Positions 51,021 to 51,382 of a DNA stretch of 64,000 bases are shown piece by piece. Below the pieces are notes generated by a model, which was not told the DNA's origin, searched no databases, and was given only the letters and a program-made list of their open reading frames with translations. The DNA is from a virus (taxonomy: Duplodnaviria; Heunggongvirae; Uroviricota; Caudoviricetes): IMG/VR virus record IMGVR_UViG_2698536476_000008. One strand, given 5' to 3'. The position numbers and the translations under genes were made by a program. The stretch's first letter is position 1, and each line of letters opens with the position of its first letter.

Positions 51021-51197
51021 ATGAAAAACCGTAAGGCAAAACGACTTTTTTTACAGCGACCTGTGCGTGTGGTGGAGCTGGTTATTAGCAACCATAAGAT
51101 AGCGGTACTCCATCCATTTGGTCAGGTGGCTTTTGCCGCAAAGCGTAAGCCTACTGCGTCACAGAACAGGCGGAAGAAAGGGTACGCTGTAAGATGA
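51021..51197 (+). CDS. Small basic protein (58 aa), MKNRKAK paralog 1
   Basis: Verified translation MKNRKAKRLFLQRPVRVVELVISNHKIAVLHPFGQVAFAAKRKPTASQNRRKKGYAVR; below ORF-track size cutoff. Confidence 0.4.
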   Translation: MKNRKAKRLFLQRPVRVVELVISNHKIAVLHPFGQVAFAAKRKPTASQNRRKKGYAVR

Positions 51198-51382
51198 AAA
51201 ACCGTAAAGCAAAGATTCTGTTAGTTCGTAGAAACGCTCCTGGCGTCTGGCAGTGGGTGAGACTCAGCAACCGACGGATGGGGTTGATGAAATATTACGG
51301 GATGATGGATTGTGGTTTTTGCAAAAAGCCCAGCGCGGCGCAAAACCGCTGGAAAAACCACTTGCGCACTAAAGGAGAGTGA
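51194..51382 (+). CDS. Small basic protein (62 aa), MKNRKAK paralog 2
   Basis: ATGA overlap with paralog 1; CGFCKK motif. Confidence 0.4.
   Translation: MKNRKAKILLVRRNAPGVWQWVRLSNRRMGLMKYYGMMDCGFCKKPSAAQNRWKNHLRTKGE

Follow-up and report, generated by a model that had tools for sequence, protein, structure and literature searches.

Tandem small basic paralogs of the phrog_1380 family, with position-specific tails, in a lambdoid early-left module of a P1-type plasmid prophage

The early-left region of phage lambda, from exo to xis, encodes a set of small proteins (Orf60a, Orf63, Orf61, Orf73, Ea8.5, and Orf55), and this exo-xis region affects the lysis-lysogeny decision and hence Shiga-toxin production. 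Previous papers on the region have noted duplications in Shiga toxin (Stx) phages and have treated the Stx-phage open reading frames (ORFs) downstream of ea22 as variable and uncharacterised (PMC8614690, PMC7093339). In PMC3029335, the model of lambdoid mosaicism via short conserved boundary sequences is credited to Susskind & Botstein (1978) and to Clark et al. (2001). The present study concerns two adjacent small ORFs, ORF1 and ORF2, at positions 51021-51382 of a 64,000-nucleotide stretch of viral DNA (IMG/VR record IMGVR_UViG_2698536476_000008), which we call the window. An earlier note on this DNA had described them as translationally coupled, basic paralogs that share an MKNRKAK start and overlap by ATGA, and had suggested a duplicated nucleic-acid-binding protein or a toxin-type pair. 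The coordinates, the common start, and the overlap were all confirmed from the sequence. We are confident that ORF1 and ORF2 are real tandem paralogous genes of the phage protein family phrog_1380. Their features are as follows.

51021..51197, plus strand: ORF1, 58 amino acids (aa), MKNRKAKRLFLQ...GYAVR and stop; non-terminal type (core ISNHK; tail KPTASQNRRKKGYAVR and stop)
51021..51041, plus strand: N-terminal motif MKNRKAK of ORF1
51084..51098, plus strand: central motif ISNHK of ORF1 (family consensus [RK][IVL]SN[RH][RK])
51153..51182, plus strand: diverged C-terminal motif TASQNRRKKG of ORF1, matching the SAAQNRWKNH position with Trp and His substituted
51194..51197, plus strand: ATGA, overlap of the ORF1 stop and the ORF2 start
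51194..51382, plus strand: ORF2, 62 aa, MKNRKAKILLVR...RTKGE and stop; terminal type, with the tail SAAQNRWKNHLRTKGE and stop
51194..51214, plus strand: N-terminal motif MKNRKAK of ORF2
51263..51277, plus strand: central motif LSNRR of ORF2
51332..51361, plus strand: SAAQNRWKNH, C-terminal motif of ORF2 and the best-conserved block in family members

The likeness of the two ORFs reaches beyond their first seven codons, as BLASTP aligned them at 37% identity over 54 residues (E = 5e-10). The window contains exactly two copies of the 21-nucleotide (nt) start motif ATGAAAAACCGTAARGCAAAR, against 0.02 expected from shuffles. Furthermore, the homology search that the earlier note had suggested placed both proteins in phrog_1380, a family of unknown function whose profile has 62 positions; ORF2 matched with an E value of 1e-40 (residues 1-62 on profile positions 1-62) and ORF1 with 6.5e-23 (residues 1-58 on profile positions 1-60). 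The idea of a duplicated small protein thus holds, in that the two are full-length paralogs and bear signs of selection at the protein level. Their richness in Arg and Lys was borne out as well. Each ORF contains 16 Lys and Arg residues against one to two Asp and Glu residues and carries a net charge of about +14; the isoelectric points (pI) of ORF1 and ORF2 are 12.0 and 11.3, and their grand averages of hydropathy are -0.5 and -0.9, respectively. No transmembrane-like hydrophobic stretch was found in either protein.

Three motifs recur in our alignments (A1 and A2) and in the distant members of the family, namely M[KN]NRKA[KR] at the N-terminus, [RK][IVL]SN[RH][RK] in the center, and SAAQNRWKNH near the C-terminus. 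ORF2 has all three, and ORF1 has the first two along with a diverged third, which is usual for non-terminal members. ORF1 represents a sub-type of phrog_1380 that is distinguished by this diverged C-terminal motif and occurs only as a non-terminal array member. The segments between the motifs are hypervariable, yet hydrophobic residues still alternate along them, and a Gly is conserved.

The family is small and enterobacterial in distribution. A word-indexed search returned 61 proteins, all from Escherichia or Salmonella, and when the profile was searched exhaustively against 1.84 billion representatives, only 48 clusters were returned, with the three motifs kept. By tblastn, the family gene was found in 146 deposited phage genomes, where its annotation is always 'hypothetical protein' or none. 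The carriers include 933W/EDL933-Stx, VT2-Sakai, Stx2 II, Min27 (ORF09), phiV10, TL-2011c, the P1-like RCS47, Salmonella phages Sasha and Sergei, and the virulent phage Av-05. Among 5426 complete E. coli genomes, 588 (~11%) have at least one copy, and 136 have the full tandem. In a genome collection covering 185,579 species, the sole match was a 427-bp contig of Xanthomonas pisi DSM 18956 (NZ_JPLE01000252.1). This contig has the C-terminal block in its E. coli form (94% identity) and is probably an assembly contamination.

ORF2 corresponds to RefSeq WP_000797279.1, a hypothetical protein. The Prokaryotic Genome Annotation Pipeline (PGAP) skips ORF1 in the closest plasmids and calls it elsewhere as WP_000797289.1, likewise a hypothetical protein. 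In 933W (AF125520), the family gene lies on the minus strand in the unannotated gap between L0068 and L0069 (3766-3951 of our locus L214). In VT2-Sakai (4001-4186 of locus L212), the 155-aa 'orf8' is called from a start too far upstream, and the family protein makes up its C-terminal 62 residues; this explains phrog_12350. Similarly, phrog_9263 is a fusion of ORF2 with the downstream 171-aa gene. Our literature search found no paper that mentions the RefSeq accessions or the MKNRKAK motif. ORF1 and ORF2 are another instance of a catalogued yet unstudied phage moron family.

Copies of the gene follow a strict rule of position. Our scan of 200-odd loci yielded 22 distinct arrays in 76 loci, along with 124 single-copy loci. 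Each intact non-terminal copy ends in QNRR[KE]KG[YND]AVR and overlaps the MKNRKAK start of the next copy through ATGA (-4 nt), without exception, whereas all the last copies and all 124 single copies end in QNRWKNH. The tail tracks the position and not the core. Specifically, ORF2-type cores (VRRNAPGVWQW..., ARRNGVGVWRW...) bear the non-terminal tail in loci L100, L155, and L183, and an ISNHK (ORF1-type) core bears the terminal tail in a single-copy gene (protein P0052, locus L083). First and second cores combine freely across the arrays. L183, an IMG/VR locus, holds a triple array that consists of an ISNHK copy, an ORF2-type core with a non-terminal tail, and a terminal copy with ISRVYRR, all joined by ATGA junctions. 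More ISNHK-type variants are present in protein databases (P0082, P0089), and at two loci ORF1 is frameshifted to 22 aa.

Comparison with relatives argues that these frames are maintained as protein-coding genes. ORF1 has an ortholog in three metagenomic/assembly loci (L084-L086, 2828..3004), where it stands directly upstream of an ORF2-type gene. The DNA and protein identities between ORF1 and the L084 ortholog (2828-3004) are 64% and 62%, respectively, and the ratio of nonsynonymous to synonymous substitution rates (dN/dS) is 0.19, with dS about 1.6. Differences at codon positions 1, 2, and 3 number 19, 14, and 29. As a frame control for the same pair, the ratio of the proportions of nonsynonymous and synonymous differences (pN/pS) is 0.36 in frame 0, which has no stops, compared with 0.88 and 1.21 in the other frames, which have two to four stops each. 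The codons of SAAQNRWKNH vary synonymously across the family (GCG/GCA/GCT/GCC, CAA/CAG, AAC/AAT, AAA/AAG, CAC/CAT, and CGC/CGG). This block has a pS of 0.72-0.94 and a pN/pS of about 0.01 (0.72 and 0.009 in 12 representatives below 80% identity), with a pN that is biased downward, as many loci were retrieved via a back-translated pattern requiring AAQNRWKNH. An unbiased profile search found SAAQNRWKNH in nearly all full-length members. The pN/pS of the N-terminal motif is 0.14. Besides, the family frame is open in essentially all of the ~90 DNA variants, and the other frames contain stops.

The features on either side of ORF1 and ORF2 are listed here.

48906-50153 and 50150-50848, plus strand: two tandem Ea22-like ORFs, overlapping by GTGA
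50848..51024, plus strand: ORF0, 58 aa, pI 12, phrog_13831; its tail ...RRRRAKR and stop overlaps the ORF1 start
51007..51024, plus strand: J0 junction, AGGAGAGCAAAGCGATGA; Shine-Dalgarno (SD) sequence AGGAG with a 9-nt spacer for ORF1, and the ATGA stop/start overlap of ORF0 and ORF1
51371..51386, plus strand: J2 junction, AAAGGAGAGTGATATG; encodes ...KGE and stop, the SD sequence of the next gene, and its ATG
51384..51899, plus strand: 171-aa gene (phrog_9263/phrog_631), outside the family and one of several alternatives behind J2

In the E. coli LRTKGE group, the pS value is 0.000 in the C-terminal motif, 0.15 in the tail, and 0.67 in the core of the same gene pairs. Such low values at the ends, against saturated cores, mean that the termini share far more recent ancestry, which is the signature of a recombination joint. 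Thus, it is likely that the termini act as recombination joints. The 16-mer J2 was found in 198 instances, behind at least six different protein tails and before more than 10 different genes. These genes start with MALTHREL (the 171-aa gene of the window), MAIAASYTM (a 69-aa gene), MANSLLET, MATLTKKE, or MDKNT, and some instances precede family members starting with MATNNRKAK. J2 is, therefore, a generic lambdoid inter-gene linker. J0 (GGAGAGCAAAGCGATG) is specific, as an ORF0-type tail ...RR[AR]KR and stop is followed by a family member in 155 of 155 instances; ORF0 is a constant upstream partner of the family.

We propose that the tandem arose, and keeps reshuffling, by homologous recombination, with the conserved end motifs as the sites of exchange. 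The sequence ...QNRRKKGYAVR, stop, and ATGA would serve as an 'inter-copy junction module', and ...QNRWKNHLRTKGE, stop, and TATGGC as an 'exit junction module' that is a generic lambdoid boundary sequence; the hypervariable cores would shuttle between the two. A broader view may be taken, in which a recombination-driven cassette system uses end motifs that double as joints to swap the cores and to vary a small basic effector between one and three copies. Core diversity would then stem from an arms race with a variable target in the host or in a competing phage (e.g., a defence or exclusion factor), rather than from neutral drift, and the tails would be an array-expansion device that preserves translational coupling. 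We consider this broader view speculative and rather unlikely.

An in-frame fusion was observed at another locus (L169, IMG/VR 3300013837_000008, minus strand, ~8129), where an Ea22-like protein runs into the family tail as ...EYKDFKAAQ followed by NRWKNHLRTKGE and stop. In the window, the first Ea22-like ORF (48906-50153) also contains the string EYEYKDFKAAQ. The fusion and the shared string together suggest that recombination at the KAAQ/SAAQ microhomology produced a deletion.

The coupling pointed out in the earlier note is not peculiar to ORF1 and ORF2. The same ATGA overlap joins ORF0, which that note had missed, to ORF1, and the junction spacings along the plus strand between 48906 and 53200 are -4, -1, -4, -4, +1, and -4 nt. 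Since each operon junction is an overlap or a 1-nt gap, the coupling is a property of the operon as a whole. ORF1 and ORF2 would be carried on one long plus-strand polycistron, and the ribosomes for ORF1 would be loaded at the AGGAG site within the ORF0 tail. Upstream of ORF2, there is a weak SD sequence, AAGGG, with an 11-nt spacer. The weak site, along with the ATGA overlap, suggests that translation of ORF2 depends on ribosomes terminating on ORF1; judging from the sequence, ORF2 is probably made mainly via termination-reinitiation at that overlap. In the single-copy loci, the ORF2-type gene lies directly 3′ of J0 and is thus behind a good SD sequence. No promoter-like or terminator-like site was found within 50.8-51.9 kb.

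As for ORF0 itself, its start may be GTG at 50848 or an internal ATG at Met28, both being candidates, and PGAP does not annotate it in the closest plasmids. The possibility that ORF0 is a third, degenerate family copy was ruled out by hhalign (probability 0.1 against the family).

The window is an E. coli P1-type plasmid prophage; a test segment is 100% identical to pLH10-b-1-B and 99.5% identical to pSA186_4. In an annotated relative, the block that carries ORF1 and ORF2 is flanked by the ppp/pmg genes on one side and by hot, humD, phd/doc, and lpa on the other. Its order (two tandem Ea22-like genes, ORF0, ORF1, ORF2, the 171-aa gene, and a DUF551 gene) is not P1-like. The second Ea22-like gene has a Pfam Ead_Ea22 match. 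The two Ea22-like ORFs are themselves paralogous, sharing an Ea22-type N-terminal domain with 31% identity over 126 residues (E 3e-10); genes in this region seem prone to duplicate in tandem and to keep the N-terminus conserved. The family is part of the moron complement of early operons in lambdoid, Stx, and P22-like phages, where its usual place is right behind ea22 in the exo-xis region. In VT2-Sakai, the order is exo, orf60a, orf63, orf61, ea22, the family gene, ..., xis, int. Most of the divergent family loci from assemblies lie between RecT/Erf/kil/cIII and DUF551/integrase, and one lies between a lambda-P-type replication gene and terminase. A window-like order, Ea22-like/ORF0 followed by the family gene and DUF551, is also found in L083-L090 and L212. 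The block is a lambdoid exo-xis/early-left accessory module that moved into a P1-type plasmid prophage, spanning 48906-53200 (context ~47.5-54 kb).

Further observations concern the genes behind ORF2. In most of the divergent loci L083-L090, a 69-aa gene (MAIAASYTMHLYCDC...) with Cys/His-rich motifs starts 1 nt past the family stop (e.g., 3194-3403 of L084); the 171-aa gene takes its place in the window, and L089 has both. The 171-aa ORF is intact in the window, and PGAP turns it into a 'frameshifted' pseudogene and a separate coding sequence in the 100%-identical plasmids. By eye, it shows a PD...(E)xK-like motif (PDAMGF...IEAK), and it has a weak match to phrog_5429, 'DNA repair protein' (E 0.003). 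The DUF551 ORF (434 aa, plus strand) contains at 52361-52425 two tandem direct repeats of 32-33 nt, 78% identical, which encode NFRENKNSSTN and NFREIAETSTN.

With the deeper alignment A2, AlphaFold2 gave a model of the family protein with a predicted local distance difference test (pLDDT) score of 77.8 (71-78 for the five models); a first run with alignment A1 was poor (pLDDT 62). The model has helices at residues 4-12 and 48-60 and strands at 19-25, 28-33, and 38-43. In this predicted structure, MKNRKAK..LL forms the basic helix at the N-terminus, the three strands make a sheet around the turn SN[RH][RK], and SAAQNRWKNH belongs to the basic helix at the C-terminus. No significant structural neighbour of this model was found. 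Searches of Pfam, NCBIfam, and PADLOC gave no match at E <= 1 save a sub-threshold zf-C2H2_jaz hit on ORF2, and the sequence-profile search of the PDB found no relative, with an unrelated plant guanine nucleotide exchange factor as the best hit (E 0.29). The C2H2/JAZ zinc finger was rejected, as the hit appears in ORF2 only (one of 32 members; E 0.096) and lies below the gathering score. The would-be ligands C40 and C43 vary among family members, and a second His is missing.

The helix-strand-strand-strand-helix order is that of the double-stranded RNA-binding domain (dsRBD), and three-stranded sheets are used for DNA binding by lambda Int-N, AP2/ERF, and CedA, with the sheet-then-helix order being reminiscent of Int-N and AP2; no significant superposition was recovered with a solved dsRBD or with any of these domains. 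As neither dsRBD nor Int-N/AP2 was recovered, the family is not assigned to them. Nucleic-acid binding, as proposed in the earlier note, is a putative function suggested by the net charge of about +14, the small size, and the early-operon context, and we hold it as a tentative possibility, on the doubtful side. The proteins may be small binders of nucleic acid, or of an acidic host target, and influence how the phage develops early on or takes over its host, with the variable sheet setting the specificity and the conserved basic helices supplying a common contact. Lambda N is an arginine-rich-motif RNA-binding peptide of a lambdoid early operon, with a short basic helix and a central Trp (QAQWKAAN). 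QNRWKNH may resemble it, which is a lead rather than a result, and the non-terminal copy is without the Trp.

Could ORF1 be a decaying, dead duplicate that persists because it is recent and gives ribosomes a path to ORF2, with only ORF2 and its intact SAAQNRWKNH being functional? Its non-terminal tail has QNRRKKG in place of QNRWKNH, the invariant Trp and His being replaced, 124 of the 200 loci manage without a first copy, two loci carry the frameshifted 22-aa version, and PGAP often omits the gene. We regard this explanation as unlikely, since the comparison with the ISNHK-type ortholog gave an open frame and a dN/dS of 0.19, and the tail has been kept through many synonymous changes. Moreover, ISNHK-type variants exist in P0082 and P0089, and the architecture of first and last copies recurs with different cores. 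A more radical proposal is that the ends are DNA-level recombination linkers and the ORFs are incidental frames without protein function. It would account for a C-terminal block and tail that are DNA-identical beside saturated cores (pS 0.000 vs 0.67), for the generic use of J2 between unrelated genes, for the core pN/pS of 0.5-0.7, and for database members P0054 and P0060, whose core is partly translated in a different frame. However, distant phages retain the amino-acid motifs at synonymous saturation, the N-terminal motif has a low pN/pS, and the frame is open throughout the DNA variants. The hydrophobic pattern and the SN[RH][RK] turn lie within the 'variable' core, and the AlphaFold2 fold is consistent. 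These observations make the linker explanation quite improbable.

A type II toxin-antitoxin pair consists of a toxin and a cognate antitoxin that is usually acidic or DNA-binding. The suggestion of a toxin-type module, in which a coupled neighbour neutralises a toxic basic protein, has some appeal by reasoning only, as the two small ORFs are coupled and belong to a plasmid prophage, and overexpressed peptides of strongly basic character can be toxic. The toxin-type idea of the earlier note does not survive the comparison, since ORF1 and ORF2 are homologs of the same charge (pI 12.0 and 11.3) rather than a toxin and a distinct antitoxin. Single copies are common, at 124 of 200 loci, and a triple array is present, so pairing is not obligate; the free reassortment of first and second cores is incompatible with cognate pairs. 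No toxin, antitoxin, or defence model of PADLOC, Pfam, or NCBIfam matched at E <= 1, the pair has neither its own promoter or terminator nor a transmembrane-like stretch, and the ATGA coupling is operon-wide. A genuine phd/doc module is found elsewhere on the same replicon type. We, therefore, judge a toxin-antitoxin function highly improbable. The chance that the locus is a structured non-coding or cis-regulatory RNA with coincidental ORFs is, in our view, very slight indeed. An inverted repeat in ORF2 (51312-51323 / 51350-51361) would speak for it, but its 5′ arm falls in the hypervariable core and is not kept in other family members, no Rfam match at E <= 1 was found across 48-54 kb, and the RNA folding energies cannot be told from those of shuffles (z -0.08 and +0.03).

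We thus favor, as a moderately probable account, tandem coding paralogs of phrog_1380 that lie in an early-operon moron region and recombine at their ends; this account leaves the specific binding function aside. Several points weigh against it. The coding status of ORF1 and ORF2 is a conclusion from sequence, PGAP omits ORF1 in the closest plasmids, the 933W record omits the family gene, and the C-motif ratio carries the retrieval bias stated above. The ORF2-type cores have a pN/pS of 0.5-0.7, that is, weak or unresolvable constraint, with a saturated pS and an uncertain core alignment; the ratio says only that the cores have diverged strongly and does not mean an absence of constraint. The ORF1-type tails are without the invariant Trp and His, and the non-terminal copies may be functionally impaired. 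Furthermore, no known nucleic-acid-binding domain was recognized by sequence or fold, and any function is drawn from composition and context.

A family gene in ~11% of complete E. coli genomes, including those with Stx phages such as 933W and VT2-Sakai, has nevertheless been missing or mis-called in reference annotation and has never been studied. If its products are early-acting binders of nucleic acid or of a host factor, they would be an extra player in the poorly understood exo-xis region, with the consequences for lysis-lysogeny and Shiga toxin outlined at the outset. The outcome is an annotation and evolution result rather than a new kind of system, and it would not surprise a phage specialist.

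The described systems that come nearest are the lambda exo-xis proteins and the lambdoid boundary sequences. Family members share with Orf60a, Orf63, Orf61, Orf73, Ea8.5, and Orf55 the niche in the early-left region from exo to xis, downstream of ea22, as well as the size class and the dispensable 'moron' character. Homology to Orf60a, Orf63, and Orf61 was rejected (hhalign probabilities 0.16, 0.07, and 0.11, respectively), and the family is far more basic than proteins of the Orf60a/Orf63/Orf61 type. The family is absent from Phi24B, and the published exo-xis experiments, performed on lambda or Phi24B, thus do not address it. As in the boundary-sequence model, J2 is shared by unrelated gene pairs, and cores and flanks are discordant in divergence. 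In contrast to that model, two of the joints here lie within coding sequence, in the motifs at the N- and C-termini, and are under selection at the protein level as well; the joints yield tandem arrays in which the tail depends on position. With its array rule and its DNA-identical termini, the family provides a clean, small-scale case of lambdoid mosaicism at conserved junctions, one that is situated inside coding sequence.

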